Assembly: GCA_963514005.1 (NCBI GenBank)
Contig: OY740809.1
Coordinates: 22,010,001-22,074,000, forward strand
Length of the DNA stretch: 64,000 nt
Origin: Raja brachyura
Lineage: Eukaryota
Direction: 5' to 3'
Shown here piece by piece: positions 1 to 61,200 of this stretch. The stretch's first letter is position 1, and each line of letters opens with the position of its first letter. The translations under genes were made by a program, and so were the position numbers. A model generated the notes under the pieces. The model made no database searches and was not told where the DNA came from. It saw nothing but the letters and a program-made list of their open reading frames with translations.

Positions 1-84
1 AAGCTGGAGTAACTCAGCGGGACAGGTAGCATCTCTGGAGAGAAGGAATATGTGACGTTTCGGGTCGAGACCCTTCTTCAGACT
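1..84 (-). mobile_element. Short Penelope-like-derived repeat arm with intact hammerhead-like core (cut by window start)
   Basis: Reverse complement of 52-84 reads AGT CTGAAGA A GGGT CTCG ACCC GAAA CGTC AC; the same family recurs many times in the window. Confidence 0.8.
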
Positions 85-3420: not shown

Positions 3421-4835
3421 TCTGATTGCAGGGCGGACTGGTTAGTTTATTGACTTGGTACATACACATATCAAATAACGTTTTTGATGTTCAGTTTCGT
3501 TCCACGTATTTAACTTTACAGTTACATTTGAAGCTGGCAAAAGTTTTAGAAGTGTGTAAGTGAGTTACCCGCTTCCTTCCTTCTACCCTCTTCCTTTAAC
3601 AGGAGCTCTGCGGATGCAGATCAAAGTGCATCCTCAAAAGTGAAACACACATCTTCTGTGATAAATAACTTGAAGTTGTCAAATTTAGACTGACAATCCG
3701 CTTGCTCCTTGCAACATTTTACTGCATTGGTGACAAATAAATAAATAACGTTTTCTTGATCATAAATACATTTTTTCTTGTAATTTGGGGAAATAATGCT
3801 TTTGAGATGGCTTATAATCACATTTGCCCTTTCAGATTTAGATGTGTAAAAATGTTATGTTGTGGCTAGTTTCTGAAATTGCGTCCTGTTCCGGATAAGT
3901 GGTGAAACCTCGGCTTTTGGGACCTAACTAAACATAACAAACAATTTAAGTGATCTGTTTGAAGAACTGCAAAATTAACAAGGAAATGGCAAAGAATGGA
4001 TTCGGAATTGGATTTGGAATGGGTATGTTCAATGCCAAATTAAATAAAATGAAATACATAGAGAGGGCACATTTGATCAATAACACAAATAAAATAGTGA
4101 AAAGAAATGTATTTATTTAAACTGTAATCTCAACGTTATTCCCATTATCCCATTAACGATACTTAAAAAAAAAATACAATGAGACTCTGTATTTTAAAGA
4201 GACAAGGTACTAATTTTATTTATCACCGTTTTGAAAGTGTTTATCAATGCTCCAGTTGCGGTGACTTGTTCTTTTACAAATTTAATTGTGCGAACACACC
4301 AATATCGCAAACATTTCAACGAATTTCACTCATAAAAAAAGGCTGTGTGGCAGTGCAGCAGAACTGGGATGGCGAGTTAATTGTATACCGGTCCCATGTC
4401 CTAATTTGCTCCACCTTGTAAGTTCAAATACCTGCGAGCGCCGATCGCTGTTTCAACAACAAAACCTGGACCGATTATAAACTTTAATGAAGTTTAGTAA
4501 ATTGCTTACAAGAAAGTTCTGCAATTTATGCAAAGCGGAAGGAGCAAAAGTCTGATCAGCTTGAAGGTGTGACCCTCGGTAAAGCGGAGTGGCTTTGTAC
4601 CACGACTTCTCCGTGAGTTACATTGAGGTTAGTGACAAAGGAGCTGTGCTTGAACGCACAAACAGAACTCTAAACTTGTGAGGTTAATGTTTAATGTTAA
4701 GAGCCTACAGGCAAATTTCAGGCCTTCTCTTGGGAAAGGAGATCTTTATAATGTTCCCAGCAGATTCAGCATATTATCCGGGGATTTTTAGAATGTGAAT
4801 TCTCACCAGCCTGGAGTTAACTTGTTACCAACGCC

Positions 4836-4931
4836 AGTCTGAAGAAGGGTCTCGACCTGAAACGTCACCCATTCCTTCCCTCCAGAGATGCTGCCTGTCC
4901 CGCTGAGTTACTCCAGGATTTTATGTCTATC
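4836..4931 (+). mobile_element. Penelope-like-derived repeat arm with near-intact hammerhead-like core
   Basis: CTGAAGA (4839-4845) A GGGT CTCG ACCT GAAA (4859-4862) CGTC ACC, then the family arm ccagagatgctgcctgtcccgctgagttactccag. Confidence 0.8.
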
Positions 4932-7900
4932 ACCAATAAAATTATCTTCTTCGGGTGATTTTTACGCAGCCTCGGAAGTTTTCATGCTCATTTCAGTCTC
5001 TCGGTTGGATCTTGTTGGTCGTTTTGATTCACATCGAAGACCGATTGCGTACATATTTGAATAATTCACTATCAGATTTAATATTTAATCTGAAATCCCA
5101 ATTTTTGCAACAAAACATTGCCCAGAATTTTTAACAACAAAAAATCGTCACAGATTCGGTCTCATTCGACCAGGCAACCGGACAGCTGATCTTATCGTTG
5201 ATCTCGGGGCACAGTACTTTTTAGAGCGGTATGCTTGCTCATCCATAAATAATTGCAAGTGTTCACAGTAAATCTACACCGAGGACTGGAGTTAAATCTG
5301 ACTTCAGGATTTGGGAGAGAAAGGGGCAAGTTCTCTTGTCGATATCCATTTTAAATTCTGAAACTTGTGCTGACTTTTAGAGTTTAGGACCTGATGTGTA
5401 TATTAGTTTAAGGCTATCAAGCTGTGGAGGCAAGACAAAATTGGGACGATTTCTGCCAATGGAGCTGCGGTTGTTCCACTTGGTGTCGCTGTGACACCGA
5501 TCCACAGTATTTCTTTGCCGGGGCGAGATGCTCAGCGGCACTGAACCCAGTGCGGACGAGAACAGAGAGAACTTCATGCTGGATGGATGCACTACTGTGA
5601 AAAAAACAAACTCGCGCAGTTTAATGTTAAAACGTTCGTCTTTTTAAACAACGGCTAGCAACTGGAGGGCGAACAAGTGCAATCTTCGAACGGAAAACGA
5701 GTCTTCTAAATCTCATTTTCGAATTTCGAATTTTACAAATTATTTTGAACACATTTCGTATGCCTGAATTATTTCACCGGTTGTTGGTTTCCCCCTACTA
5801 TTTGACATTGTCTTTTACTATTTGCATCCCGGGTGTGTTTCTGCGTGTGCGGGCGTGTTGTGGGGTAGATGTGGTGAGGGTCAGTCATGATATTTAGTTA
5901 TAGAAGCCGTACTTTACTGGAAAATAATTCACGTTGGGTTGGCGCCTAATGGGAGACTGTAACAGCGCCAGTTCGATTGTCAGTTTGTGATTTAGCGCAG
6001 AAGTAATCCAAATCTATCAATACATGTGCGGCAGTAAAACTGGGATTTGATAACCAAAATAATGTAATAGTTGATTTAATTAAAACTGTTAAAATAATGA
6101 ATTTAGCCTTTCCAACGCCGATAAGATTCACCCACAACCGCTTCCCCCGTCCTTCTGTCCAACAACAAAACAAAAAGCCGGGGATAGCTGCAGGCGACAG
6201 AGGGAGAATTCAATTGATTTTAATGTGAGATCTTCAATCTGTGAATGTCCCTCAAAGCTGACACTGGGAACCGGGGGCTCAATCCAACAACATAAGTATT
6301 ATGCAAAGACGGGCAGGGACAAAATCAAATCACATACACATTTACAACAGAAAACGCAACACCAATCGGCGATGTAAGTTACTTAAAAAAGCTGTAAGCA
6401 GTTAGAGAATAGCAATAATATACATTAGGTTGCATCAAATCGCAGTACGTCAAGAAAGATAAACGAACGCCAACAGCAATGAAGCATAGGGATATAGCGA
6501 AGACTGAAATATTTGATAGCAAATATCAAAAATTGAATTCAGATGGAAACGTTTACAAAAGACACGTGGTTATGTGCAGATGACATTTTAATAAATTAGA
6601 AATCGACTTTTTACATAAAGAAAACCATCTAAAATGTGTATGGACATAATTATATAAAAACTGCAGAACCTTAAAATTGTTATTTGAGGAATTCAAAAAA
6701 AAAAGAGAAGTAAACACTACTTGCATCTGTTTTTTATATCACTTCACGAGGTTCATCTCCAGGAAAGCATGCGGATATTACACTGTTAAGTAACATTAGT
6801 TTCGCAAACTGGAAGAAGCAACGGTATTCTGCGGACTAATTACCTGGAAAGTGACGCATCTCCGAAAACCGGGTCAACTGATGAATTGTGTTAAATGTAA
6901 TAAAAGCCAACCGAATCCCCATCCAATTTTAAATCTTAAGCATGACTAATGTCGTTCCTCTTTAAAAAAAACTTCTAAAAAGTTAATTGATTTTAAAAAT
7001 ATAATACCCCTTACTTTAATTGTATAAACTATCCATTATTTACCCCCCCCCCCCCCCCCCCCCGTCAGCACCTTCCCTCCCCAAAAATGAGAAAGATTAT
7101 GCTGGGAGTTGAGGAAGTAGGGGGCTTCGTCCATGTTTTAAAATATTGGAAGTTCCTTAGGGAGGTCTAGCTCCCCGTTATATTCTGATTTATAAATGAC
7201 CAGTCTATTGTCGTGGAGACACCATTTCTATTCTTCCTTTGATTCCATACGTAGTATGTATACATAAGTATGTACTATAACCCAATCTAACATTCTCACC
7301 CCATTCCTTCCCCCTTACGTATTTCACTGGCTTTCTGCATTTTGTCAAAAGATATGACATATTTCGAAGCAATCTGACGAGTTTGGTCTTATAAAGATGT
7401 AAATATCATGTATTTATACTCTTTAAGATCTCTCGTACGTGTTGACCTGAACGTGAACATTTAAAATGTTTCGTTATTTTGATCTATAGATTTCCTCGGG
7501 ACCTGTGTCGGATTTGATCTATGGGGGGGGGGGGGGGGGGGGGGGGGGGATTAGTACTTCTTTGGAAGGACAGCATGTCCACAAATGAAACCTTTCACCC
7601 AAGTTCCGGGTTAGCTACATGTTCCTAAAATCGATAACTTTCCTTTAGATTATTTTAGACTAACAATTATAAAAATGAAGCAATGAAACATTTTCTAGAT
7701 CTCAATCATGTGATCTCACAGTTTAGCTGCTGGGTAAGGCATTGGGAAGTATATAGGCAGCAAGAGCATTTAGGAAAGTGTATATAATGTTCCCTGATAC
7801 CAGTTCTTCATGGACATCTATTGCTTTAACTTGACAAATTCTAACAAATATTGAGGATGTTCTTAATGCAATTTATTTTCAACGCTCGGATCACCTGACC

Positions 7901-10249
7901 TCGTTTGATCAGAGAAGCTGCTTTGCTGAAGAGCGGAAAGTTTTGATTTTCAAGATGCAATCCTCAGCTGAAATATGGCCACAAAGGACGACACTGTGCT
8001 ACGGGATAGGCCGGGAGAAAGCCCGCTGGATGGTTCATCATTATTTAACATATGGTTGTAATGGGTGACTCTCGCAATCACTGCTGAAAGTGAGATGCAG
8101 CGAGATGTGCTAATATACAATACAACTAAGTATATTGGACCACCGCGCTTCCACACCCCACCTTCACACCATGTATCTTAAAGGTGTATCTTGTTTTAAA
8201 AATCAGGACTTACAAATATCGATCCCTCATAAACTAAAACACACCTTCTTGCGTGTATATATTTACAGGCCTTAATCGCTCTGCCTTATTCTGCCCCTTC
8301 TCCGCACACATTTATTTTTAATACAGACGTGGAAGTGGACAATTGATCCTGAAATGAATTAAAGAGAAACCCCTGGTCAATAGCAAAAGATTGAAATACC
8401 ATCCCGATTACAAACGATGACTTTCGCAAATCCGCAGGCCAGCACGCGCCTGGTATCTCGTGTCTAAAATATGTATCGCCCTGTACCTGATTCATAAATT
8501 ACTCCCATAAAGGCTTTTTTAATGGAACTGTGAATTGTTTTTGCCCCATTAAAACCTACCGTGCACAGTTTTAAACTTTCAGGTGATTTGTTTCGGAAAG
8601 TTTTCTAATATTATTTTGAATTTACTGTTTCGATTTAAAATATCCTGGAACCTGCAGCAAGCACATTGGGGTTTTAAAATGTAAATTAGCTACCCCCTGT
8701 GGCAATGCCATTACGAAATGGCCATTACAACTGACCCAAACTTTTTTTTAAACTAACATTCCGGTTAACCATAGGTTAGGATGAAGACGAGATATTTTTG
8801 AACACCGCCTTGAATATAGGTAATGTTGACGTTTAATTACTGTTCTGAGATTCGGTTATTGTATCGACCCACATTCCTGTTAATTAAATCGGAGACAGTA
8901 TCAAGTTACCACACCCACCTCACCGCCTGTTTCGTCCGCATTGAGCCGTATGTCTGAACGGCGAAATATAAAGTTTCCAAAAATGTATCCGAGTAAAGTG
9001 TAAAACAATGGGGATAAAATTCACAGCAAATATCACAAATATTGTTGCTACAATGCTCAACTAATTACCTAGCTAGAAAGGAAATCAAAGCAATTCTGGA
9101 GCTGAGAACTAATCCGATATCTTATTAGTTCCACCTGCTAATTAACAACTTAATTTTAATATCAAGTATTCGGAAATGTAAGTAACATTTTGTAATTGCA
9201 CATTTAATGTTACAGTTGTAATTTGCAAAGTTACCGACACAGGTATTGGCATTGTAACTTACTTTTCCAGATCACCATGGGTTGGTTTGGATTTGGAGAG
9301 CCTTTGAACCTGCAAGAGTTGAATGAGACAATAATAAGGGAGGACTAGAAATATATAGGGGAGCGAGTTTAGAAAAATATGAACGTTAGCGTTTCACAGA
9401 ATACCATCGCAACGAGTACACTAGAAATGATATGCCCTCTTTACTGTTGATAATAATTTGTTAAATGCCTCTCCTTTATTAAAAGAGTTAACCAATAAGT
9501 CTAAAAACATGACATGCCGACCATAGTATAAAATGTAAATATTACAGATACCTTTATCATCACACACTCTCCAGAAGCGTGTGCATCTTAATATTTTTTT
9601 AAAATTTCATTCATTTTTATGTGTAATCTGAATACGGGTAGGCAACAACGACTAACTACAATATGTTTTGTTTCTTTTGGTGGAATCGACGCATCTCCGA
9701 GGCTTTGGGGAGACTTGGAAACTCGGCTTGCATTCAGCACAAAGCTGGGCAGCTTTTTCGAATAGTTGTGAGGCAGAGGAGCCGCAAGCGACGCCAACTG
9801 CTCGATGCATTCAGATTTAAAACAGGCCCTCCGGCACCCTCCCCGGTCGGTAGAAAAGGGTGGATAAAACCGGCTGCCGTCGCGTTTGCTGACTTCCATC
9901 GTTCGGGGCCACTCTCAAACTTTAGACCATTTGGATGTGTTGAGGATTTGAACAGATCCCCCCAAAGATATATGTGTCTTTTAATGCTTTAAAAAAAACG
10001 TATATATTGTTAAAAGTGTGTTCGTTTTCTGTTAAACGATTAATCTGCTTCGTGAAAGGGTTGCTTCGCACATTACTCTGGAGCTCTGGATTATTTGTTG
10101 CCTTTGCGTACGACTTGGAGGGAACTCCGTGGTGGTTATGTGTAAAGCGCACACGTGGACAGTTCTTATAAATAAAATGTTCAAATTGCGTTATACTATC
10201 TCTTGCTTTTCTTTGAAATGTCTCTTTCGGTTCCACCACTATTTCCCTT

Positions 10250-10655: not shown

Positions 10656-11250
10656 GTGAGTACGCAGAGAGGGAAAACGGCGCTGTTTATATCGGATCGA
10701 AGCTGCAAGCGTTATCGGGGCTGCCTTTATTTTCTGATCGAGTAAAATACAACAGATGGTTTAGGCGACGCGCGTTGGGTTTTTTTTTTACCCGCCGTTT
10801 TCGTTATTTTGGCTAACTTTTTCCCCGTACCTCGCAATGATAAACGTGTCAAAAAACTGCAACTCCCACAAAGGACAACTTTACCCACAGCGGAAAAGCA
10901 AAAGGAGAGAGCTGTGGGGACGGGGGGTGCGTGGGGAGTGGCGGTGCTGAGGAGGGAGGGGGTCGTTTCTCCTCAGGGCTAGTGGTGGGGGTGGGTTGAC
11001 TTTATTTCCGGATTTGCAGGCGATATATTTCCTCACAGTACTTTGTCAGGGGGGGGAAAAAAGGCCGATTTTACCCATTGGCAGAAGTTCGGCGGTGAAT
11101 TGAATTTAATACACAGGACTACGAAAACGGCAAGGACCAGCAAATTAAATGAAAGGACGGATCGAAGAAGGTTGTGTTGCTTTGCCTCACTCTGCTGTGT
11201 GCAGTCGATGAGTTTGACTCCTGTAATGGGTCTTGTGTTTCCTCTCGCAG

Positions 11251-11712
11251 GATCGGCACGATGGAATGAACAGCAGCCACAGTGCCCGCCTCGCCCAGCT
11301 CGGCTCCATGAGCCAGGCGCCCTACTCCACGGCCCCGCCGCTCTCGCACACCCCTTCGTCGGATTTCCAGCCGCCGTACTTCCCGCCGCCCTACCAGCCC
11401 TTGCCCTACCCTCAGAGCCAGGAGCCCTACGGTCACGTCAACGATCCTTACTCCCTGGCCAGCCCTCTGCACCAGCCCCAACAGCACCCGTGGCAGCAGA
11501 GGCAACGCCAGGAGGTGGGGGCCGAGCAGGGAATCCTGCACCAACCCCGGGGTCTGTCTCAGTTGTCAAGCCTTGACCACCGTCGGGATTACCATGGGCT
11601 CCGGCGGCCAGATGTGCTGCTCCACTCCGGCCACGGCCTTGACTCCAACCACGGGCTGGTTGACACGCTGGCTCTCCACGCTCTCAACCATCACGGACTG
11701 GACGATGTACAG
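11251..11712 (+). CDS. tfap2e: AP-2 transcription factor, exon 2 (P/Q-rich activation domain with PY motif)
   Basis: Acceptor cctctcgcag, DRHDG...[17 protein letters not shown]...GLDDVQ, donor gtaggg; 462 nt, phase 0/0. Family certain, paralogue identity less so (E about 0.65, B alternative). Confidence 0.95.
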
Positions 11713-14318
11713 GTAGGGGCTCCACTCAGTTACACCCAGACGCGCCTCGGGACGGAGTTGTTCCTGGAAAACTTGATTTAAAAAAAAATTGAATATACTG
11801 TTCCTCAGGAATACAAATATAAATTTAATGTTATTTCCGACATTGCTCCGGGTATTTTAAATTAAAATAAACAATGGCCGCGCATGAATATGAGAAGTTT
11901 TCAATGAATTGATTAGTTCATCTGATTAGTTACTGACTCCGGTGTCCCTGTGGAAAGATCACATTTGACATGGAAGGAGCCGGTAGCATTGTCTGCAAGC
12001 GCTGAAACGATGTTCATACCAGCTCGCCAGTGCGAAAAGATATCCTGCTCTAACACATCCAATCCCGCCAATTATTATTACACGAGTGCACTAGAAAACA
12101 GTGCAGTCGGTGCATTTTGTTTTCCGAATTTGCGTTTTATCCTCAACCTATTCATATCTGGACGTTTTGTTTCCTTTTGTAAATTGATTTCCAAATCAAC
12201 TGTTTTTGCAGATTAATAAATGTATCGTTATTACACGATAAATGTTTTCAAATAAAATCTGCGTAGGTGAGATTGTATTTGAGAGAGAGAGAGCCAGGGA
12301 AGGTGTAACGTAATATGTAGCACTGTTGACAACAACACCGTGGCTTGGAGAGAAAAATAAACTTAGTAAAACGAGTTAACTTAAACCAAGAAAAAGTGAC
12401 GTTTTATTAATAGGGTAGGCTCATAATTGTCACAATTTGGGGTGCGCCCCTTTGTTGTCTCCCCTCCACCTCCCCACCCCACCCCACCCACCCCAACCCT
12501 TTGTTCCCATCTGTGTGTAGGGTGGGTATGGGTTATTGGTTTGTATTTTAACTATGGCTGGGCGATCATTGCACAAAGTGACAGGTTTCACTAAAAAGCG
12601 TTGAGCTTGGATGCCGCATCCAGCCAAACCTATAGCAACTCCTCCACTCAATACCCCACACAACACATTACAGGGCACTTATGTCCATTTGGTCGCGTGA
12701 ATGGCAAATCGCGTTGTACAGTTTTAGATCCAGTTATTTATGATGGTGGCTGCCTTTTCCGATAATTCCGGTGATGCCAGGATGTTCAAAACGAAAGTGA
12801 CAACCCCAATGGCTCATCCTATATGTTTTAGACACCCAGCAAGGCGCACAATGATGTGGTTCTGGTGATTAAAATGTTACAGTTTTTTTTGCACTTTTAA
12901 TTTCGCCGATTAAAAGCAAAACGTCTCTGAATTAAAATATAAATCCAAATAATACGTTGAATAACAAAATTCGGTTTCCGCCTTTATTCAAGTTAAACTT
13001 AAACACAACAATAATTTATTAATATAATACACGAAAGATTTTAAGCCAGAGCTCTCCGTTTGAATTCGTTCTGGGCGGATGAATTGCCTCAAATAAAATC
13101 AAGAACGATTTAAGCTGAACACATCACGGTGTCCCATACTGTCGCTCCCTGGACTCTAGTCCTGAAGAGTTCTGTACAGCTTGGTCTCGGTGGACTGTTC
13201 CACCGAATAGCTTTTCTAATTATAGGCTTTGTAAACACAACTCGGCGCGTTGGACGTGTGTGCAGTGTTTAACGAAAAAAACCAGAATGGCAAACAAAAA
13301 ATCGAGGGGATTAGTCTGCCGTTTGTTCATTCGCAGAAAAGAAAGACCATCGTTCTCAAAGTGGCCGTTTTACATGGAGTGTGGCCACTTTGTGGAAAAA
13401 TGCCCTGTTTGGGCAACTTTTCCCTGTTATTTACAGAACGTTTCTGTAATCATTTTACAACCGGGTGAAAAACGATAAATGCTTTTCTTTCTCTTTGGCT
13501 GAATCTGTTCGGTCTCAATCCCTAGATACAAACTGTGCGCCGAACTAATGCAGCTCCTCGTTGTATTTCATTATGCGACATTATTTTTGTGAGGGGATTT
13601 TTACTTTTGTTATACCAGTTCAGAATTCAGTTTTATATATATTTAGGGATGTGGATCAAAGAAAATAGAGGGAGTGAGTAAACGAACAAGATTTTTTAAA
13701 GTTTCAGAATTGGCATTATAAAACCTAACCTCACCCTTACTTTTTATTGGTTGATGGCATTAAAAATATAAATTTTCCGTCCCTATCGCCTTCAAATCCA
13801 CAGTCCATCGCCCCACCAAAATCCCGGAAGCTAAAAGTTGATTATATTACAGGTAACATACCACCGGCCAATTATCCTACAAGTGGATTTCTACCTAATG
13901 CGATGAGGAATAAGATACATAATCAACGCGATGTTTTGCAGATGTCAGTTTGAATTGCATTCTGGATTTATTAAAGAATGATCTGTTTAATTTTATCTGG
14001 ATTCAACGATGACGTGGCCAAGGTTTAAAACCGTGTCATAGATAGAACGGTGGCAACATGGGAAATTAAGATATTTTGATGTTCCCAAAAGTTTATAATT
14101 GAAAGGGGTAATTCTGTCAACAAGGTAACCTGATATGTAACGATCAGTCTTTTATAGAAGTGAGTTCACCGCTAATCAAGTTTGAGGGTGTCTGCTACCG
14201 GGAGTATTATTAGTGCTGTCTCTGCGGGGTGTTTTGGTGTGTAATTCATATTGCACCAGAACCAGGTGCACTGTCTTAACGCGAAAAGAGGTTGGAGAGC
14301 AGCACTTCAATTCCAGGT

Positions 14319-14526
14319 AGACACAAAAAACTAGAGTAACTCAGCGGGACAGGCAGCATCTCTGGAGACAAGGAATGGGTGACGTTTCTGGCCGAGACTG
14401 TTCTTCAGTCTCGACCCGAAACGTCACCCGTTCCTTCTCTCCAGAGATGCTGCCTGTCCCGCTGAGTAACTCCAGCTCTTCGTGTCAATCTTCGGTTTAA
14501 ACCAGCATCTGCAGTTCCTTCTTACA
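14319..14526. mobile_element. Fold-back (inverted two-arm) copy of the hammerhead-motif repeat with 16-bp TSD
   Basis: Arms of about 80 bp (14319-14400 and 14408-14490) are reverse complements; flanked by cacttcaattccaggt (14303-14318) and cacttccattccaggt (14527-14542). Confidence 0.85.
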
Positions 14527-21484: not shown

Positions 21485-22417
21485 ACATTAACAAATTTGC
21501 AGATGACACGAAAGCTGAGTGGCAGTGTGAACAGTGAGGAGGATGCTATGAGGATGCAGGGTGCCTTGGGCAGGTTGGGTGAGTGGGCAGATGCATGGCA
21601 GATACAGTTTAAAGTGGATAAATGTGAGGTTCTCCACTTTGGTGGGAAAAACAGGAAGGCAGATTATTATCTGAATGGTGTCTAGTTGGGAATAGGGGAA
21701 GTACAACTAGATCTGGGGTCCTTGTTCATCACACACTGAAAGTAAGCATGCAGGTACAGCAGGCAGTGAAGAAAGTTAATGGCATGTTGGCCTTCATAAC
21801 AAGAGGAATTGAGTTAACAAGAGGTCCTTTTGCAATTGTACAGGGCCCTAGTGAGACCACACCTAGAGTTTTGTGTGCAGTTTTCGTCCCCAAATTTGAG
21901 GAAGGACATTCTTGCTAATGAGGGAGTGCAACGTAGGTTCACGAGGTTAATTCCCGGGATGGCGGGACTATCATATGTGGATAGAATGCAGCGGCTGGGC
22001 TTGTATATTCTGGAATTTAGGATGAGAGGGGATCTTATTGAAACCTTTAAGATTATTAAGGGATTGGACATGCTGGAGGCAGGAAACACGTTCCATTTGT
22101 TGGGGGAGTCAAGAACCAGGAGCCACCGTTTAAGAATAAGGGGTAGGCCATTTAAAACGGAGATGAGGAAACACTTTTTCACCCAGAGAGTTGTGAATGT
22201 GTGGAATTCTCTGCCTCAGAAGGCAATGGAGATCAATTATTTTGATGCTTTCAAAAGAGAGTTAGATAGAGCTCTTAAAGATAGCGGAGTCATGGAATAT
22301 GATGAGAAGGCAGGAACGGGGCACTGAATGTGGATGATCAGCCATGATCACAGTGAATGACGGTGCTGGCTCGAAGGGCCGAATGGCCTACTCCTGCACC
22401 TATTGTCTATTGACTAT
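21485..22417 (+). mobile_element. 5'-truncated CR1 LINE (RT C-terminal half plus 3' tail), relatively young
   Basis: KFADDTKL RT motif; LYRALVRPHLEFCVQF; RGDLIETFKIIKG; FFTQRVVNVWNSLP; tail ctattgtctattgactat; frameshifted. Confidence 0.95.
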
Positions 22418-23492: not shown

Positions 23493-24956
23493 CTGTGTGT
23501 AAACAGGCTGTAATATGTGTGTGTGTGTATATCTATATATATATCGGATTTAGTTTGCATAAAAAAGAAACTATTGTTATTTCCGATTACGCTGTAGAGA
23601 GAGCCAGTATAGATTCCGCGTAAATCCCATGCCTGCAACTAACAATTAAACCTCTTCAATACCAGACCCAACCAGATACATTTAGCTGGAGGTGTTTGAA
23701 CGTTACTGTTTTAATTAATTTAAAGTGCTCCGAAACTGAATAGACGTTAAAGCAGAGACAGGAAGGCGGTCTAGAATAGAAGCTCAGCACCGGCCCGACA
23801 ACATTTTGGCCGACTTTTAAAAGCAATAGAGTTTGATCGATTCCATATCTTCGTGCAAACGGATTAGAAATCGACGTGTAATTCGCTCCTTTCCGAACAA
23901 ATCTTTAAACCTCAAAAAAACATTTCGAAACGGCTTATACGCAGGCATTCCTCGCGGAGACGTTGATGGTCCTGTACCTGCCTCATTTATTTAATTCCGA
24001 AAATACGCGTAGAACGTCTCTAAAAGATCGGCGGAATCTATGTATAAGTCCAGCCAAGCTGTATGACAATATATTAAACGAATATTACTGATCTGTCGAT
24101 CATCCGCTGGGAGTTGATTTTTCCACATGTGGAAGCCACCTCAGCAGAATAGCTGGTTCATCTCCGCGCGTTTACTACTGAAATTCCCCTGGGGTTTGTA
24201 GGGTGCTGAGCTATGGCCGGCTCTTGGGAAGTAGCGCGCCCTAACATCATGCAGAGGGAGGGCGAGTGAGAGTGAGGGAGCGACAGATAGGGAGAGAGGG
24301 AGAGAGGGAGAGAGGGTGGGGGGTTAGTGGGAGGATGTTGGGGAATGGGAGCTTAAAAAACGAAGTATGTCACGTTAGAGCGAAACGCTGTCAGCTGGAG
24401 ATCAAGCGGCCACAGAAAAGGACAGGATGAGTCGGCAAGTCACATCAAAATGAAAATACGAATGTGCGAGAAGCCAGCAAACCAGCAGTGACTGGGGGAA
24501 GAGTGGCGGCGGATGATAGATGGATGTTCATTAACCCTCTCCTGGGCTCGTTTAGTTCTCATTTCTGCTATTAGCCCCCGCTGAGCTATTACAGCCTTAG
24601 ACAAGCGGCCGCTGCGCGGGTCCCAACGTCTCAGCTCGCCTGGGATATTACAGTCTGTTAAATACTCTGCTGCAACCACTCTCAGGTTGTGTCCTGTTCC
24701 CGTGGTCGCTCTCTCTGGTCAAACGCCGGTAAGCTTTGCTCGGCAGCCGGCCGAACGACCGAGTACCTCTGTACTTTAGAAAATTCTCGCTTTTAAATGG
24801 GCAGGTTCACTTTTCACATCATCATTTAATACAATAAACAGAGATGACATCTACCCTCCTTCATAGCTGAGCTGTTGTCCGAGTGCTATTTCTTTTACGC
24901 TTCTTTGCGCTTCTTTTACGACAGATAGATTATTGGCCTGACGTTAAGTTTCATAC

Positions 24957-25033
24957 GGTAGACAAAAAATGCTGGAGAAACTCAGCGGGCGAGGCAGCAT
25001 CAATGGAGAGAAGGAATAGGCCCTTCCTCAGAC
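24957..25033 (-). mobile_element. Hammerhead-motif repeat arm with internal deletion, 12-bp TSD
   Basis: Family arm gctggagaaactcagcggg..gcagcat; TSD taagtttcatac at 24945-24956 and 25034-25045. Confidence 0.8.
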
Positions 25034-26596
25034 TAAGTTTCATACCATCATTTTCCGTGCACTAAAAGGCATGGCCGGTGTTGAGTCCACTTTTGAGAGA
25101 GAAAGAGGACTCATACAGCACAGTTGCAAGGACTATACTTGACTGCAGCATTGCTCCTTTGCGAGACTTCCTTATTTTGATCTAATCTCGAGCATTTCGA
25201 TCGTTTCGCAGAACAGGTAGCTGCTGAACATTTTTGCTACAGCTCTCGTTAATGCCAACAAGCCATACGACGCAGAACCCGCATATTTTCTTGTAATTTG
25301 AATAATTTCTTTAATTACTATCGTCGGTTTCAACTTGCAAATTACACGAACAAAGCCAAAGCCGTATATTATCATAAATGTCAGCACAATAACTCAATTA
25401 TGGTTATATGAGGAGTTGAGCTACCGATCGAATGCCTGAGTCTAGGGCCGGTGTGTAGTCTGAAGCTGTTCACAGGCGGGATTTAAGTGAATTTCGGTCA
25501 TGCACAGAGGGGAGAATTTCCCCAGCACTTTCAGTGAAAGGGTTACCGACCCTGCATCTGTAGTGCGGCTGGAAGAATCAGAGGCTCCACGCTTACTGCG
25601 CTCCTCACACTGATACTCCTGTGTTGTATTAGTGAGGCTGATACCAGAATCCAAAAATAAGAGCATGCAGGTTTCTAAAGTTTAATATCTCACAGCTATG
25701 ATCAAATTCCAGCCAGAACCAAATGGTGCTCGAGAGAGATTTAGTGAAAACAAATGCATGGTAGCGTATATTGGAACGCCCCTGTTGCAAAGATGTACCA
25801 AGTGTTTATTTCACATTGATTGCCACTTGATGGTGAAACGGCTGCAAGTTCAACAGTCCATCAGAGCGTGCACAAGATATTTGCATAATTGTCCTGCACA
25901 AATTAATATTGTTATTTCATGTGGCGTCCAGCTTGGTCATAAATAGCTGCTTCTCATAATAAAACAAAACTTGTGTTTTATCGCCTCAATTCAAATGGCG
26001 CAATTGAGCACGAATTCCTACCAGAAATAAACAATTACACATCTAATTTAACAAACTCTGAGCAGCCCTTTCATTTAAGCGCGGTTTTATCTCACATAAG
26101 ATTCGGATTAGTTTGCTGTTATAGATACCACGCTGCAATGAAATTCCTTGTTCACATGAAGCTCAGAGTAAACAGTATAGTTATGATAGATACCACGGTG
26201 TATGCAAAACAGCGGAATAGTTCACCCACCCGCAATCTGAAACGTTGCAAAAAAAACGAAATGACTCTAAAGAACTTTCCTATGTGTATCTGCACCAGAA
26301 AACGAAGTTGGCAAAAAAAATCAGCTTATTGTCCAAATAACCATCCATTCTAATTCTGTAAAGTATCTACAAATTTATGCAATGGAAAAGGAGTATTCGT
26401 AAACTCCGCAGCTTATGTGAATTGTTACATATAGAAACTGTCCTTGAATGATTAGCATCTACATGCATTTAACAGTGCATCATATAAAAAATGGTGACAT
26501 GGAAAAGCAAATTTGAATGGATTATAAAGATACACTAAGAAAAATAATGGAAAATAACAAAATCAATAATAACCAAGAAATTAGTCAGACTTAGTC

Positions 26597-26752
26597 TTGT
26601 CCCTCCTCCTGTCCAACTTTCTCCCCCCCCCCACCTAACAACCCCACCCATGCCAATCAGTCTGAAGCAGTGTCCCGACCCGAAATGTCACCTATCCATG
26701 TTCTCCAGAGATGCTGCCTGACCCGCTGGGTTACAGATGCACTTTGTGTCTT
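26597..26752 (+). mobile_element. Hammerhead-motif repeat, longer arm, degenerate core
   Basis: aatcagt CTGAAGC A GTGT CCCG ACCC GAAA TGTC acctatccatgttctccagagatgctgcc. Confidence 0.75.
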
Positions 26753-27512
26753 TATTTCAAATCTTACATAAATTACAAATATGTCTAGAATTAGGATAAA
26801 CTTGTGTTTACTTTTAATTATTTTTAATTTATGATGAGTTTTAGCAACTATATAGACAAATATTTCACTTCGGTATGAGTGTCTGTGACTGTGGGAAACA
26901 ATAGTTTTTTAAATGTTTAGCAGTTTTAGACCATTTGGTGCATCTACCATGTCATTTGGATTCAGATTTAACAAGGTGTATCTGTAATCATGTAATTGTT
27001 CACTTCAATTAACATTCTGCCTTAAAGTGAGTCCAGTATTCACTTTTCATTTACATGCTTTCTCCCTCTCTGCACATGAATCACCAAAGAGGCCTGTACT
27101 AAAAAAAACTTGGAACATCTTTTAGGAAATACGTTTTTTAATTACATTTCTCTCACTCATATGGATAGGAGAAAAATCCGAAATCAAAACAATTACATCG
27201 AATAAAAAATTCTGAGCTGGTTTTCTCAAACTCTGTAATTAAAAAAAACAAACTCTGTCAAAAGGATTCTTTACTCATGGGATATATTGTGTGAATGGTG
27301 TCTGAAGGAACACCCCATCACTTTAACAACCTTGCACGGATGTCGGATCCAATTGTCCTGCCCACCCGATCCAAGAGTCAGGTGAGAAGACATGGCAAAG
27401 CTTGGTGGCAATTAAGCCTCAGCCACTGTGCTTGCAGAGCTGCCAGACATGAGGCAAGGCTGTGTGCAGAGTTTCACCTCCTGTCACTACTTGTGAGCCT
27501 TTGTACGTGACT

Positions 27513-27700
27513 TGTAGAAACAAGGAACTGTAGATGCTAGTTTACAAAAAAAAAGGCACAAAGCACTCGTGTAACTCAGTGGGTCAGGCAGCATCTTTGG
27601 AAAACATGGATTGGTGACAAGGGGTCCTGACCCAAAAAATGACCTATCCATGTTCCCTTGGAGTTACTCACTGAATTGTTCCAGCACTTCGCGTCTTTGT
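27513..27700. mobile_element. Degenerate fold-back copy of the hammerhead-motif repeat
   Basis: gtagaaacaaggaactgtagatgc...taactcagtgggtcaggcagcatc...gggtcctgaccc...acctatccatgttc. Confidence 0.7.
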
Positions 27701-30955: not shown

Positions 30956-31068
30956 GTCCGAAGAAGGGTCTCGACCTGAAACGTCACCTATTCCTTTTCT
31001 CCAGAAATGTTGCCTGACCAGCTGAGTTACTCTAGTAATTTGTCTCTATCTTCTATGTAAACCAGCAT
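30956..31068 (+). mobile_element. Hammerhead-motif repeat arm (core CCGAAGA)
   Basis: CCGAAGA A GGGT CTCG ACCT GAAA CGTC acctattcc...gctgagttact. Confidence 0.8.
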
Positions 31069-31574
31069 GGAAAGCCATTGTGAGCGCAGCTCAGGGCAGC
31101 GTATGGGAAGATATAGGTGCTGGAGAAACCAGAAGATGGTTTAGGATTTCACTCCATTTCCCTAAACTGGGATTTATCTAGACTCCTGCCAAGAGGACAC
31201 TTGACACTGAGCCTTCAGTCAAAACTGTGCAATGCTCCAAATGGCAATCAGGGTTTTGACCGAACGCTAAACCAGGGCCAAATTCCTCACAGGAAAATAT
31301 TTGGTGGCAATGAGAGAGAGAAAGTTACAAAGTTCTTACTCCCACAGTTTATCACCTTACTCTGAATCCATGGTGAACTGTATAATATCTTCCAAGTACC
31401 AAGCAGTGGGCAAGGGAGGAAATTGCTTAAATGCTGTGGTGAAAACGAGGGGAGTATATGTAAAATTGAAAATGCTATACACTCAGCATTTCAACAATAA
31501 CTATGGCAAGAAAATAAGAATTGGTGGTGAGGTCCATGTCCTTATATTGGAATAATAAATGATTGTTGAGATCA

Positions 31575-32260
31575 TTTAGGTGGTATGTAGACTGTCAAGA
31601 TGATTATCAAAAATTACAATGGGATCTTGATCATCAGGATAAGTCGCCCGAGAAATGACATGATTAATTTAGATATGTGCAAGGTGTGGCATTTGGGAAG
31701 TCAAACCAGGGGTAGGACTTTCACAGTGAACAGTATGGCCCTCGGGAATGTTGTAGAACTGAAAGACCTGGCAGTATAAGTACATAATTCCTTGAAAGTG
31801 GCATCAGAGGCAGACAGAGTGGCAAAGAAGGCTTTTTGCAGGCTGGCCTTAATCATTCAGGATATTGAACAGATACGTTGGGATGTTATTTTGCAGTTGT
31901 GCAAGACTTTTGTGATGCTTATTGGAGGATTATGCAAAACGCAATGTGACGGAGTAACTCAGCAGGCCAGGCAGCCAGGACTTGATGGATTGAGTTATAG
32001 AAGGAGACTGGGCAAGCTAGGACTCTATTCCTTGCTGCGTAGTGTGAGAGGAGTGATCCTGTAGGGGTATATAAAATTGTGAGGAGAATACATTGGAAAT
32101 TTTTTCCCAGGATTGGGGAAATCAAGAATGAGATGACATAGATTGAAGGTGAGAGGGAAAAGATTTAATAAGAACCTGAGGGGCAACGTTTTCACACAGA
32201 GAGTGGTACGTATGAGGGACGAGCTGCTAGTGACAGTGATTGAAGTGGCTTTTGAATGAC
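31575..32260 (+). mobile_element. Degenerate CR1 LINE
   Basis: VILQLCKT; GLSYRRRLGKLGLYSL; tttaataagaacctgaggggcaacgttttcacacagagagtgg. Confidence 0.85.
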
Positions 32261-42810: not shown

Positions 42811-43063
42811 GTGTAGAAACAAGGAACTGCAAATACTTTCTCAAGAAAATGGCATAAAGTGCTTGAGTAACTCAGCAGGTTATTCCGCTGACTGGCGAAC
42901 ATGGATAGGTGATGCTCCGGGTCAGGGCCCTTCGTCAGACTGATGACAGGTGATGTTTCGGGTTGGGACCCTTCTTCATACTGAAGAAGGACCAAAACAT
43001 CACCTATGCATGTTTTCCAGAGATGCTGCTTGACCCGCTGAGTTACTCCAACACGTTGTGTCT
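42811..43063. mobile_element. Fold-back hammerhead-motif repeat with two tandem minus-strand cores
   Basis: Family arms on both sides; candidate TSD atatctgctg (42801-42810) / atatcggctg (43064-43073). Confidence 0.8.
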
Positions 43064-43439
43064 ATATCGGCTGTTGTTAGTCCATTTCAGAGTTTCATAG
43101 TTTGCCAAAGGAAAGATTTATTTTGAACAGCAAATAAAGTCAGTTATAAGGGGTACACTAGAAGTTAAAGCTTTTTGATGTTCCGAAGATCACCACTTGC
43201 CTGGTCTTGAAACATACTGTTACTTCCTGTGTTTTCTTGGATGTAGTCTTTGGAATATCAGTGTGGCCCACCAGAGTGCAGGGCCGCTCCCAGTGTATGT
43301 GGTCAACTGTGCTCACAGTAGGCTTTTGACAGCTAGTGAAGTCCTATGCTCAGGCTGTTACATTGACAAATGCTCCACAACACCTGAGAGCTATTAAATT
43401 ATTTAAAAAATTACAAAAACATTTAAACACTCACACAAA

Positions 43440-47272: not shown

Positions 47273-48577
47273 TGTATGTCAGTAAAATTACAGCTTTGAT
47301 CCTGGCACTGACAACTGATTTTAGCCGAGAATGGGACAGGAGGCTACAATAAACCTTAATTACCGAGGGATAGCGTAGCTGAAATCTTGTTCTGCATCTT
47401 ACCAGAGATTCGATTCAGCCTTTGCTAGATAGTTTTGCAAAGCTTGACTATTCTTAATTGAAAATGGATTGGCCTATATTGGAAATGTTCATATTCATAA
47501 CATCTTGTGACTTTTCCGAAAGTGTATTCAGTATGGATTTTTTAACTTGGTTGTCAATTTATGCATAGTCCAATATTCACAAATATCAACACAATAAATC
47601 CCTTATGAAACTGATCTGGGGATGTTGGTTGAGGGATATACCTGCTTTATCTCTATTTTATCTTTAAAAAAAATACACAAAGGTGTTTTCTGTCTACCTG
47701 CAACCATTATCACTGCAACACAACATCTCTTGTTACATTTAGTGCCAAATGTTTACTTTGTATAAATGTCATGAATAAGTAATTTACAACTGCATGGATA
47801 TCAAAATAAGTGCAAAATAAGGGCATTTGTAAAGTCCATGCCCGTTACAATGAATCACCAAGGGATGAACATGTCCTGGTTTTGTGCTGCTGGATTTGGA
47901 AAACAGAGATACTGTTCTTCCGGTTACATCAAGAGAGTAGGAATCGCCTGCAGTAATTCATTTTCGGGCCTGGGGATTCATTCAGCTACAATGTGCAAAT
48001 GAGCAAAATTCATTAATTAGTGCACAAAATCTGCATTGTGTGTGCACTGTGTTTTGGTAACTGCACTGGTGCAGGATTTTTTTTTCAGGTGTGTGCTCTT
48101 AGAGTAAGCACCAGGTGTTCTTTTCTTCCACTGCAACATCGCGCTTGTTAGACAACAGCAGTTGGAACTGATGCTTCTGAAAAACCCGTTTGTATTTTTC
48201 AAAGCAAAATTATGTGAAAAGAAGCTGACGGGCATAAGATTGCAACAGAAGAAAATTAAATGTGAAGGGACCATTTTGTGAGAGACTTCACAGAGCCCTC
48301 TATAGTTACATGTAACTGGAAATTAGCACAATCTTAGAAAAATTGTAGTTTGTTCAATATATTAAGTATATTTAACTGAAATAATTTGGGGAGAGGAACA
48401 AATAAAATATTATAGAATTATTGCCAAATCTTATTATGGCCATTTGCTTTCTTTATTCTTCAATTTCCTCAAAGACGGTGATTCATGTTGGGTGCGGTTG
48501 CAGAATTGCTGACTGTTCTAAAACCTCATCCAAGTGGCAAAGCTAATTATGTAAGCCAAGCTAGTGATAGATTGAGG

Positions 48578-48693
48578 GTTACACAAAAAGCTGGAGAAAC
48601 TCAGCGGGTGCAGCAGCATCTAAGGAGTGAAGGAGATAGGCGACGTTTCGGGTCGAGACCCTTCTTCAGACCCTTCTTCAGACTTCAATCTAT
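48578..48693 (-). mobile_element. Hammerhead-motif repeat arm with intact core and perfect 17-bp TSD
   Basis: TSD ctagtgatagattgagg at 48561-48577 and 48694-48710; core at 48638-48673 on the minus strand. Confidence 0.88.
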
Positions 48694-53059: not shown

Positions 53060-53720
53060 ATAATGTAAACAGTTCAGAGAAGGTTAATAACATTGATTCT
53101 GGGAATGGGCGAGTTGTCCAGTGAAGAAAGGTTAAATAGAATAGGTTCTGTATTCATAAAAGTTCGGAAGAGTGAGGGTGGACTTAATTGAAACATAAAA
53201 TCATGACAGATCTTGACAGGTTGGATGTGGAGAAGATATTTTAGGAGAATCTAGAACACAGGATTTCTATTTAAAATTTAGTGGTCAACCATTTATGACT
53301 GAAATTAAGCAAATATTCCTTTCTCAGAGGGTCACGAGTTGTTGGAACTCTCTACCTTAAAGGTGAGGCAGAGCATTTGAACATTGTTAAGACAGAGATA
53401 AATAGAGAAACAAGGAACTGTAGATGTTCATTTACAAAACAAGACACAAAGTGCTGGAGTAACATTGGGTCCGGCAGCATCTTTGGAGAATATGGATAGG
53501 TGATGTTCCGGGTCGGGACTCTTCTTCATCTGAATTACTCCAGATGAGTTACTCCATCACATTGTGTCCTTTTTGGAGGTAAATAGATTCTTGTTTGGGT
53601 AAAATGGGTAAAGGTTTACTGTAGATAGGCAGGAATGTGGCATAATTGTTACATTTGGAGTAGCCATGATCTTCGTGGATGACAGTGGAGGCTTGAATGG
53701 TTGAGTGGAGTTGGAATTTG
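53060..53720 (+). mobile_element. CR1 LINE 3' portion interrupted by a hammerhead-motif repeat (53407-53575)
   Basis: gacttaattgaaacata, ttctcagagggtc..gttggaactctctacc, CR1 tail agccatgatct; insert flanked by gagataaataga / gaggtaaataga. Confidence 0.85.
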
Positions 53721-54354
53721 TATGTTTGCATGTAAATCCAGACGGGTTAGGTAATATTCCATGGTTTATAACATTTAGGGTCCTGATATAATTTAACTCC
53801 TGGTTCTTGGAGCTTTTAATCAGAACCACTTGCCACTTCATTCCTCATTTGTTGATTTAAAATATAGCCCATGCTGACTGGCATTACTATTTCAAGCCAT
53901 CTGGAGAAGACTGTTACCCGGGCACCAAGTAGGCAATATATTATGTGGGATTCTAAACTCTACACATTAATCAAATTTTGACCCTGCACCTCTCCAGCTG
54001 TGACCAAACCCTGGAACAAATTGTCCAAATACTTCTGTTCCTTTATATGTATCACTGTGACTCCAAATTGGAATCCTAGCTCAGTGACTGAGCCAAATAG
54101 ATTTAAAAGCAGGATCTATTGCACCAGTATTTACTTAAGACAGAATTGCTGTCATATAATAATCCATAATATTTAAACACACCTTTCAGTAGAGCGTAAT
54201 TTTGATTCATACTGTAGGTACCAAAAAACTAGATAACATTTTGGATAAATATTATCTCAAACCTGCATGGAATTACAAGTGTTGGAGGGAAAACAAAATA
54301 TCACCTTTGATGCCTTCAATGGATTTAAAAGATATCTGGCTGGAATATTGAGCA

Positions 54355-55025
54355 AGAAACAAAGTGCTGGAGGAACTCAGCGGGTCAGGCAGTGTCGATG
54401 GAGGGAATTGGAAGACTAGGGGGAAGCCACTGAGCTGATACACGTGATCCAGCTGACTATCGCCCGCAGGGGGTAGCCACCGGGCCAGTCCCCCGCGATT
54501 GAACGCGACCTGGTGGACTGCGGTCTGGAAGGGAGAGCCCGCTGAGCCGGTCCCTGATCATCCCCCAAAGACAATTGAGTGGGAGGATGGAGCTGGCAGC
54601 AACAATGGACACGACCAGCGAGACGGAGGCTGGTAGCAGAGGAGAGGGAGCCGGGGTCTGGCCAACCGCGCCCTTGAGGTTTTCTGCACGAGGATCCCCT
54701 GGGGCACAAAGGTGGACGGGAGAGCAGAGGGACGTTGGTTCACAGGTCGATCCACATGATCAAGGAAGGCAATGGCTGGAGGCCTTGCAGCAGCCTGAGG
54801 CTTGCCTGAAAAGGGGGCAATGCTCATAACAACTGGACTGGACTTTGAAAATGGCACCAAAATATACGGCTCTTGCATGTGGGATCAGTGGACTGTTTTT
54901 GTACATTCGCCAATCGTGGATGTGCTTGGGTATGGCAATACTCTGCTGGACTGCTTGTAAGAAAAGAATTTCACTGTGCATTTGCACTTCACACATGTAA
55001 CAAAAAAAAAGCACAATTGAACCAT
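54355..55025 (+). mobile_element. Fold-back family arm (54355-54412) followed by a GC-rich LINE-tailed retroposon
   Basis: aaagtgctggaggaactcagcgggtcaggcag arm; 3' part ends aagaatttcactgtg...aattgaaccattg like other LINE tails. Confidence 0.5.
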
Positions 55026-58479: not shown

Positions 58480-58769
58480 ACAAATAAATGCAGATGCTAA
58501 TTTACAAAAAATAACTAAAAATGTTCGGAGTCAGGCAGGAATGGGGTACTGATCGTGGCTGATCAGCCATGATCACAGTGAATGGCGGTGCTGGCTCGAA
58601 TGGCCGAATGGCCTATTCCTGCACCTATTGTCTATTATCTCCGAAGAAGTGTCTTGACCCAAGATGTCACCTATCCGGTTCATCCACAGATCCTGCATGA
58701 CCTGTTGAGTTACTCCAGCACTTTGTGTCTTCTTTTGTAAATCAGCATCTGCAACTCCTTGTGTCTACA
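58480..58769. mobile_element. Fold-back hammerhead-motif repeat with a CR1 3' tail (58533-58636) nested inside
   Basis: Inner segment is nearly identical to 22308-22411; outer arms match the family. Confidence 0.8.
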
Positions 58770-59289: not shown

Positions 59290-61200
59290 TGCAGGAATCA
59301 GTAACAGGGCCAGCATTTATTACCTATCCATAATTGCCCTTGAGATGCAAGTGGTGGTGAGCTATACGTTGTGGTTCTCTGGTGAAGGTGCTCCCAGTGT
59401 GCCCTTGGATAGGGAGTTTCAGGATCTAGACCCAGCAATGATGAAGGAATGGACATACAGTTCTAAGTTAGGATTTGAGGTGACTTGGAAGGGAACATAC
59501 ATCCGGTGGTGTTCCTGTGCTCCTGCTGCCCTTGTCCCCTTTTGGGTAGCGGTTGTGGAGGTTGTGGTTAGGGAGATGGAGTTGGAGCAGCATCGGTGAG
59601 TAACTACAATGCATTTTATAGTTGGAATATTCTGCAGCCGATACTGGAGGGCATCAACGTTTAAGATAGTTGATGGGGTGCCAGTCAACTGGGCAACCTT
59701 ATTCTCTTTGATGCTGAGCTTTTTACACATTGTCACAACTCAACTCGTTCAGGCAAGTGGAGAGTAATCATTCACACTCTTGTTAGTTCCTTCGAAATAG
59801 AGGAAATAATTTGAGGTGATAGGAGATGAGTCAGTTGCCAGAGGATACTCAGTCTCTGATCCAATCTTGGAGACACTGAGAATTTGTGACAGATCCAAAT
59901 GAGTTTCTGTTTACCAGGATGTTGGTGATGGGAGAAAAGATTAGAGTAACATCAATTAAATTATGGGTAGATAGACCTTTTCTGGTAGGAAAAGGTAATT
60001 GCTGGCTCTTTAGTGGTGCACGGGTTACTTATCACTTATTAACACGTGCCTACATGTTGTCCAGGTCTTGCTGCATGTAAGTACAGTCTGCTTCACTTTC
60101 TAAGAAGTTGCAAATGGAATTCAACATTGTGAAATTATTGGCTCTTTGTCATGCCTTGATAGCAAGTAGTCACTTTCTCCTCCCTTCTGCAATTCAGCTC
60201 TTGTCCAAGCTTGCAGGATTTAATCCTGGTGAAAGTCAGATTTGCATTGGCAAACAGGTTATTGATGATTAAGTGTCACTTGATAGTTGTCCAAAAAACA
60301 TTTCCATCATATTACCAACAATTTGGAATAGATTCATTTGGCAGAAACTAGTTGGATTGTATTTGTCCCGATTTTTGTGGCTAGGATACAGCTGGACAAT
60401 TTTTCACAGATGTGCCGTTGTACTGAAACAGTTTAGCTCAAGGTGTACTTAGTTCTGGATGCTAGTCCTCGGTAGCACTGCTCGGACGTTGCCTGGATCT
60501 ATAGCCTTTTTGCTGTATCCAAGGTGGTTAGCTATGCCTTAATTTTACATGGATTGAATTGAATTATCTAATGACTGGTTTCTGTAATGGTTGTGATCTC
60601 AGGAGGAAACTGTGGCAGATGATGCGATCGACACTTTTGATTGAACGTGATTGCAATTGTACAGCCTTGCCTTCAGCACTCACATCTTGGGTCCCACCAG
60701 CAGTGAATATCGGGATATCTTTGAATTCTCCTCCTTTTGTCTGTTGACTACCATTCTTATTTAGTTGTGATAGAACTGCAGAACCATGATCTGGGTGCTG
60801 TAGAGTGTCTTGGTTTTTTTCTATTGCAGACACAAGTAACACAGGTGCTGGCTTACACAACACAAAGTGCTGGATTAACTCAATGGATCAGGCAGTACCT
60901 CTGGAGAAGTGTCCCGATCCAAAACAGTGCCTATCCATGTTCTCCAGAGAAACTGCCTGACCTGCTGAGTTACTCCAGCATTGTGTCTTTCTATCTATTC
61001 CATGCTGTTTTGATTCAAGAAAGCACATTGCCCTGTGCCCCAGCTTTAATAGATTGGCCCTTCTTTTTTGTGGCTGGACTTTTACTTGGCAAGAGTATCG
61101 TGCCAGATGACAGGGCTAGAGATGAAGTTGGTGTATATTTGTGTGCTGCTGATTGTCCAACAGGTCCATTCTGATGTGTTCTATTTAGCACAATGACAAT
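59290..61200 (-). mobile_element. Long ancient CR1/L2-superfamily LINE remnant, interrupted by a fold-back repeat at about 60826-60992; a second copy of part of it at about 61858-62130
   Basis: Minus ORF NKVAQLTGTPSTILNVDALQYRL; 60337-60440 aligns by eye with 61861-61962. Confidence 0.65.

Follow-up and report, generated by a model that had tools for sequence, protein, structure and literature searches.

Minimal hammerheads of Penelope-like elements and the skate motif

Minimal hammerhead ribozymes in the terminal repeats of Penelope-like elements (PLEs) have been known since 2014; Cervera and De la Pena list them for Neptune, Poseidon and Xena elements of fish (PMC4209133). According to PMC6155905 all available PLE sequences carry such motifs. 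The minimal hammerhead is described as inactive as a monomer and weakly active in dimers (PMC4209133), and the role of PLE hammerheads is called unclear by Craig et al. 2021 (PMC8557442). For the Anolis Poseidon element PAc, cleavage is reported to need the element protein and to be dispensable for insertion (Frangieh et al. 2024, PMC11167929).

The window analysed here, a stretch of 64,000 nucleotides from the skate Raja brachyura (GCA_963514005.1, contig OY740809.1, positions 22,010,001 to 22,074,000), contains such a motif. At 4836-4870 (+) the original prediction placed a hammerhead core with a G-U pair at the base of stem II, and the sequence agrees with it. C3 is located at 4839, CUGAAGA occupies 4839-4845 and is followed by an extra A at 4846, and helix II consists of 4 bp between GGGU (4847-4850) and ACCU (4855-4858), with the G-U at its base. 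The 3' part of the core is formed by GAAA (4859-4862), the C-G of 4863/4864 and U16.1-C17 (4865-4866). Helix I has 2 bp (4837-4838 with 4867-4868), and helix III is the palindromic ACGU at 4862-4865, without a helix III loop. This minimal type I hammerhead spans 4837..4868 (+), passes a hammerhead descriptor and is predicted to be cut after C4866.

The PLE motifs described in PMC4209133 are likewise of type I, with a CUGANGA/GAAA/UH core, an extra base between positions 9 and 10.1, a G10.1-C11.1 pair, no loop 3 and a palindromic 15.2-16.2 stretch. They also occur mostly as single dispersed copies, and like them the skate motif lies within the terminal repeat of a PLE. The helices differ from those of the Schistosoma motif, where helix II has 7-8 bp and helix I 4-5 bp, against 4 and 2 here (PMC4209133). 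The 2-bp helix I is common to the skate motif and that of D. virilis and marks a variant (PMC4209133). Judged by the features that can be tested in sequence, the motif belongs to the Penelope minimal hammerheads and has short helices I and II. Supplement file 2 of PMC4209133 contains no shark or skate term.

The motif occurs repeatedly in the window. The core pattern has 8 matches against 0.01 expected from shuffling, and a profile of the family 3' end detects 18 family pieces, about one per 3.6 kb. A motif descriptor and the Rfam hammerhead models had been proposed as checks. The descriptor, which was written for the present analysis and run on the window, a 580-kb genome sample and 5 shuffles, accepts 3 window loci, 13 loci of the 580 kb and none in the 5 shuffles; the Rfam scan of the window and of an intact copy alone matched no hammerhead model at E<=10. 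A score for the Rfam family AEV_CRE in the window was rejected as an RNA family of its own because it stems from the palindrome formed by the head-to-head pair at 14306..14526.

The copy that carries the motif, at 4832..4931 (+; profile match 4831-4951), is classed as a pseudo-LTR piece of a Neptune-like Penelope element, namely a solo 3' terminal unit lacking a tail. It shares 90% identity with the 3' end of a long copy with reverse transcriptase and endonuclease. A candidate 5-bp target-site duplication (4827..4831, right copy 4932-4936, +) was seen by eye and is so short that it could be due to chance. Contigs of four organisms cover the left flank of this copy and run into it. Because all share the junction, the insertion predates the split of the four organisms. 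The copy at 4836-4870 is old and probably an inactive relic.

Intact cores had also been claimed at 52-84 (-) and 48638-48673 (-), and both were verified in the sequence. The first belongs to a copy that is cut by the window edge (3..84, -; sequence, pattern, profile and descriptor), the second to a copy with a U-G variant of helix I at 48568..48683 (-; sequence, profile and descriptor). The latter has a 12-bp duplication of the core start; inspection by eye also gave a 17-bp direct repeat around it (48694-48710 / 48561-48577) and, at its 5' junction, 9 bp of target DNA that fold back (within 48684-48710, -). The head-to-head inverted pair at 14306..14526 (profile and pair analysis) has a tail on one arm only, with damaged or truncated hammerheads. 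In the inverted pair at 42820..43067 (profile) the minus arm holds two degenerate tandem cores with a 41-bp period, which at 1.9 degenerate units are the single tandem of the window, and an older, degenerate inverted pair is located at 60839..61002 (profile and pair analysis). The other pieces are a solo copy at 30956..31069 (+) with U4 mutated and a G-U at the helix II base, a copy at 24955..25036 (-) with helix II and III deleted, and degenerate copies at 26647..26759 (+) and 58640..58760 (+), all found by profile and alignment. Further degenerate copies lie at 27522..27633 (-; profile) and 53411..53528 (-; pattern and profile), and 3' arm fragments at 31934..31975 (-) and 54340..54407 (-), both from the profile. 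The loop variants and the CTGACGA near 42935 that had been noted are both present in the window. In the four-position loop, two sites form a CpG that is lost by transition; the remaining two vary by subfamily. A tblastn search found no remnant of a Penelope ORF within the window.

The abundance of the family was estimated from a sample of 58 stretches of 10 kb (580 kb), taken at round coordinates on large contigs. The profile detects 219 pieces in this sample, which is 0.38 per kb or one per 2.6 kb, with 0-13 pieces per 10-kb stretch, and this corresponds to roughly a million family pieces in the genome of 2.70 Gb. Most copies are units of ~100-135 bp, and as a rough estimate from 219 pieces of ~100 bp in 580 kb the unit makes up a few percent of skate DNA. 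A genome-wide search with an exact pattern that demands core, helix II and 2-bp helix I all intact gives 16,387 matches, and the reversed control gives none. The family consists of several subfamilies of different age. Copies of a young subfamily are 98-100% identical, with 40/40 scored copies at 99-100% over 200 bp, and older long copies, whose frames are broken, agree at 83-90%. A near-perfect head-to-head pair of the young subfamily, with ~190 bp per arm, is found 6 kb to the right of the window (L064:6135-6530). At L095:9714-9854 and in L023 units sit inside another abundant short repeat, presumably a tRNA-derived SINE, and the target resumes on both sides. The skate copy number is far above the 4,000-9,000 reported for coelacanth and Xenopus, and within-genome variation is low, unlike in the families described in PMC4209133.

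The parent element and its terminal structure

The derivation from Penelope elements that had been proposed is demonstrated by longer genomic copies, in which the motif was indeed found attached to an ORF for reverse transcriptase (RT) and GIY-YIG endonuclease. A hammerhead lies within 450 nt downstream of 65 of the 71 GIY-YIG C-termini examined, most of these loci having been picked for it, and of 8 of 10 in an unselected sample. Long copies reach through the RT, and alignment of the broken copies to relatives gives the ORF order RT then GIY-YIG. The relatives are RVT_1 proteins, often with GIY-YIG, the best being shark proteins at 65-69%; the linker C-x4-CxxC, the endonuclease CCHH residues and the YIG motif all align with RT + GIY-YIG relatives. 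In the young subfamily a stop-free endonuclease stretch of 234 residues is present directly upstream of the motif. The UTR between stop and core differs among subfamilies, being ~90-300 nt in the longer genomic copies, and the order established from these copies is RT, zinc linker, GIY-YIG, stop, pyrimidine-rich UTR, hammerhead, 3' arm and optional tail. Pfam scores of the genome's own RT and GIY-YIG pieces are under the curated cut-offs. The loci examined include no full-length intact copy, and two young loci that were followed upstream are both 5'-truncated.

The repeat is very probably the 3' terminal segment (pseudo-LTR) of a Neptune-like, endonuclease-bearing skate PLE, with the motif as its minimal type I hammerhead. 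The label Neptune-like is suggested by motifs, which form a Neptune/Nematis signature, and the linker is common to Nematis too. The wording 'short retroposons or truncated pseudo-LTRs' of the original prediction fits because most copies are such short units.

The same architecture of RT, CX2-5CxxC linker, CCHH residues and C-terminal GIY-YIG is described for endonuclease-bearing Neptune-clade PLEs, together with 5' truncation, an inverted 5' copy and a tail of 30-40 bp on one end (Craig et al. 2021, PMC8557442). The skate family has two 3' end modes, near model positions 186-203 and 216-228, ~30 nt apart, and its copies carry the Penelope tail of 30-35 nt. The sample, window and flanks contain 48 head-to-head pairs (41 from the sample, 7 from window and flanks) vs 7 tail-to-tail pairs, and the tail is present on exactly one arm in 35 of the 48 head-to-head pairs, compared with 23.9 expected (p=0.001). 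PAc also has two 3' ends, which match two internal RT starts, its hammerhead lies upstream of these starts, and unprocessed RNA is the main template (PMC11167929). However, PAc belongs to the Penelope/Poseidon clade without zinc linker (PMC8557442), whereas the skate family has the linker. The PAc ORF starts inside the hammerhead (PMC11167929), but no such ORF start was seen in the skate family, and none of 192 tailed ends is a pLTR continuing into an ORF start. From the published work, the element protein would nick DNA, and reverse transcription could start at two internal RNA sites with a spacing of ~30-35 nt. This may account for both 3' ends and for inversions with a single tail. The hammerhead itself may cut only as a dimer held by ACGU/ACGU or with the help of the element protein.

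Several further structures were observed in the long copies. The apparent 5' end of the full element (L162, L163) begins with TGAAGAAG followed by TCTC, like the first half of the hammerhead. In short chimeras (L008:1404-1490, L119:1124-1147, L134:21-41, L151:9786-9802, L142:297-320) the 3' tail is fused to this end at differing places, which suggests template jumps or internally deleted non-autonomous forms. Upstream of the RT, the ORF of L082, L162 and L163 has a long low-complexity, internally repeated GC-rich stretch. In the 3' arm (e.g. window 4886-4920) AGATGCTG has a complement, CAGCATCT, in the tail and another, CAGCAT, closer by, and the arm also contains a hairpin GCTGAG...CTCCAGC in which subfamily variation is mainly in the loop. 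Both are candidate RT-binding structures.

Decay, constraint and folding of the hammerhead

The decay of the motif was counted in the 129 of 252 pieces from the sample, window and flanks that span core and arm. The CUGANGA...GAAA...UH core is intact in 48 of these, and core and all helices are kept in 13, of which 11 have G10.1-C11.1. The unpaired A between 9 and 10.1 is found in 120/129. The pair 10.1/11.1 is G-C in 72 copies and G-U in 23, and helix III has its C-G in 53 of the 129, the others being mostly CpG transitions. The catalytic G12 is replaced by A in 36/125, in line with the remaining CpG sites (22-45 of about 125). C11.1 is replaced by U in 28/125. U4858 is such a CpG transition, and the G-U of the copy at 4836-4870 is due to CpG decay of C11.1.

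These counts bear on the claim that the GGGT/ACCC helix is largely kept: helix II mismatches amount to 11.5% vs 9.1% in the arms, so that this helix is not better kept than they are. Excess conservation of core and helix II over the arms, or covariation, had been named in advance as signs of a functional ribozyme; within copies the core has no such excess, and no compensatory pair was seen. An apparently better preservation of the core (6.4% vs 9.1% in the arms, p=0.0015) is gone when the comparison is made with subfamily-invariant arm sites (82/1275 core vs 342/4403 arm, p=0.12). The constrained A6/A9 mutate like the free A7 and the extra A (23/256 vs 21/255). Among the eight commonest pair types, no two-sided compensatory change was found at any helix position; the helix changes are one-sided, U-A to U-G only, in a single lineage with little depth. 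The copies decay neutrally. As to the proposal that the family spreads a self-cleaving motif, the spreading material is mostly decaying DNA and not working ribozymes, because there is neither excess core conservation nor a compensatory pair.

A different result is obtained between subfamilies. Comparison of five subfamily centres gives diagnostic changes in 0/19 core and helix II columns vs 15/52 arm columns (p=0.007); the 11 core positions are the same in all five. The changes in paired positions and at the cleavage site are tolerated ones, namely U-A to U-G at 2.1/1.1 and 10.4/11.4, and C17 to U17. Core and helix II are constrained among source elements, and this is visible only between subfamilies.

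In silico the monomers misfold. In three window copies helix II has a pairing probability of <=0.014, since GGGU finds better partners beyond the cut site. For the dimer a hammerhead-like fold is calculated at -7.5 to -12.7 kcal/mol vs a dimer minimum of -19 to -21 kcal/mol. According to these calculations the dimer hammerhead fold would be stable without being the minimum, in agreement with what PMC4209133 and PMC11167929 report.

The 5' boundary of the copies and its possible origin

Random 5' truncation would thin coverage smoothly. In the sample, coverage along one long copy instead falls from 159 in the arm and 121 at +8 to 85 at -2 and 15 at -12, so that the step from 121 to 15 takes no more than 20 nt and coincides with the core's 5' edge; further upstream it is ~10 over the endonuclease end and 1-2 over the RT. 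Breakpoints were mapped against 15 reference UTRs, with 57/219 pieces dropped because they had no anchor or too little flank. The 162 breakpoints include 56 at -6 to -1 from C3 vs 9.9 expected, spread over ~6 nt in two humps. Copies that start at the cut site (+27 to +29) do not form a class (5/162 vs 5.0 expected). The same boundary is found in exact genome-wide counts, which decrease from 7,079 to 4,651 and 2,278 when the pattern is lengthened from +3 to -1 and -4, vs 27, 25 and 24 in ORF-linked copies. The UTR signature is present in 13,562 of 63,467 copies that reach -4 vs 18/24 ORF-linked ones, a calibration set that is small and biased to well-kept copies. Loose ends listed for four public runs, all of them contigs, include 4835-4838, and among those listed 4866-4867 does not occur; no RNA run was listed for the locus. 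Flanks of the 24 solo copies within the peak resemble genomic DNA, with a mean pyrimidine content of 0.52 vs 0.77 in the UTR, and ~6 of the 24 flanks resemble unlisted UTR types.

The usual inserted unit begins with the 5' strand of helix I and finishes at either of the two 3' ends. Apparently the templates are RNAs uncut at the hammerhead, and the ~100-135 bp unit inserts by itself. If, as the copy ends suggest, the copied RNAs are mostly uncut at the hammerhead, cleavage would not be what defines the inserted unit. The passages of PMC8557442 that were consulted do not mention such a very sharp 5' boundary at the hammerhead for Neptune-clade PLEs. In the literature searched no shark or skate report of the motif, or of the 5' boundary, was found, although supplements may list the motif.

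Two simple causes of the boundary were rejected. Stalling of the RT at helix II would end copies 3' of helix II, near +19, and with a fixed 3' splice junction the flanks of solo copies would resemble a common exon and not, as they do, target DNA. All UTR types (e.g. L026:1480-1509) have a pyrimidine tract, often CTRAC, and a CAG abutting helix I, which resembles a 3' splice site; in D. virilis the 5' end of helix I marks where an intron stops (PMC4209133).

The boundary may arise during integration, through snap-back of the cDNA end, or its resolution, at the quasi-palindrome TCAG-T-CTGA; solo units and head-to-head inversions would both result from this. This is a reasonable possibility to which we nevertheless give less than an even chance. 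It is in agreement with 26 of 71 breakpoints of the inverted class being at -5 to -1 and with an identical 12-bp overlap in 5/48 pairs, at least 3 of which are centred on TCAG-T-CTGA; palindromes at inverted junctions have been read as self-priming (PMC3846280). On the other hand, the hairpin would have merely 3 bp, and the solo units with target-like flanks end at this position without an inversion.

The second possibility is that the ~100-135 bp unit is a SINE-like element, with an internal promoter at the TCAGT before the core and internal RT priming, so that its RNA is a complete template. We take the TCAGT just before the core to be initiator-like, going by its consensus. The sharp fall in coverage, the clustered breakpoints and the decrease of the genome-wide counts that ORF-linked copies do not share all argue for such a unit, as do direct repeats of 9-12 bp at several solo units (~4/24 by eye). 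An internal promoter is also reported for Penelope of D. virilis (PMC2377424). Still, the breakpoints are scattered over ~6 nt in two humps, short and long copies have subfamily types in common with no short-only lineage seen, and the TCAGT lies within the quasi-palindrome that can explain the boundary without a promoter. We therefore regard a SINE-like origin of the unit as possible but tentative. A wider proposal, which we consider somewhat doubtful as a whole, is that of a SINE-like non-autonomous Penelope unit of ~100-135 bp and a million copies, with its 5' end given by an internal start at the hammerhead edge and its 3' ends by internal RT priming. Its copies would record uncut templates in vivo, and the hammerhead, kept in the sources, would act at another step.

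It is rather unlikely that the motif descends from a hammerhead that no longer cuts and is kept by the source elements as a protein-binding or promoter element. The 2-bp helix I, the competing fold that pairs GGGU past the cut site and the lack of excess copies starting at the cut site would be consistent with this, and the anole element inserts in vitro without cleavage (PMC11167929). However, the 11 core positions are constant across the subfamily centres and the nearby changes are those that hammerheads tolerate. Moreover, the D. virilis motif with a 2-bp helix I cut weakly when helix III was extended (PMC4209133).

That the copies are retrozyme monomers which replicate as circular RNAs through hammerhead cleavage is very improbable. 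Non-LTR retrozymes derived from Penelope pLTRs are reported in one chondrichthyan, and they are non-coding and carry a type I hammerhead like the skate unit, but they form tandem arrays with a hammerhead per unit (bioRxiv 10.64898/2026.07.22.740005), whereas the skate copies are dispersed monomers and inverted pairs. Tandems make up 10/252 pieces in window, flanks and the 580-kb sample, the single one in the window is short and degenerate, and unit ends are not at the cut site. By the tandem criterion, applied to these same sequences, the family is not a retrozyme.

Host exaptation of the copy at 4836-4870 as a ribozyme or regulatory element near an AP-2 gene is hardly credible: the copy lies ~6.4 kb upstream of an AP-2-epsilon-like exon and its insertion junction is common to four organisms, but it has the usual CpG damage at G10.1-C11.1, and nearness to any gene is expected with one family piece per 2.6 kb. 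A chance resemblance of an unrelated repeat to a hammerhead, for which the absent Rfam hammerhead match could be cited, is just as remote, in view of the link to the ORF, the location of the motif where minimal hammerheads sit, and the full or partial presence of all four additional sequence-readable features that published minimal hammerheads have.

The ribozyme itself adds little, since minimal hammerheads in Penelope terminal repeats were published already. The value of the family is that it provides a large natural data set on the role of the hammerhead, in which the 5' ends of copies pile up ~30 nt upstream of the cut site and match the uncut RNA template found in vitro. For genome annotation, hammerhead scans will be flooded by the skate unit.

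Other features of the window were also noted. A 28-bp stretch at window 5345 is present in three other organisms and absent from the Raja brachyura genome. At 11227-11715 (+) lies an AP-2 transcription factor exon with 98-99% identity to AP-2-epsilon/beta-like proteins of skates, and the window probably holds much of an AP-2 gene. Stop-free pieces of another abundant repeat are located at 21818-22327 (+), which has no Pfam match, and at 39142-39588 (+); to us they resemble the 3' end of CR1-type LINEs. A long imperfect hairpin at 36533-36631 gives a below-threshold score with a plant miRNA model and is possibly a small inverted-repeat element.
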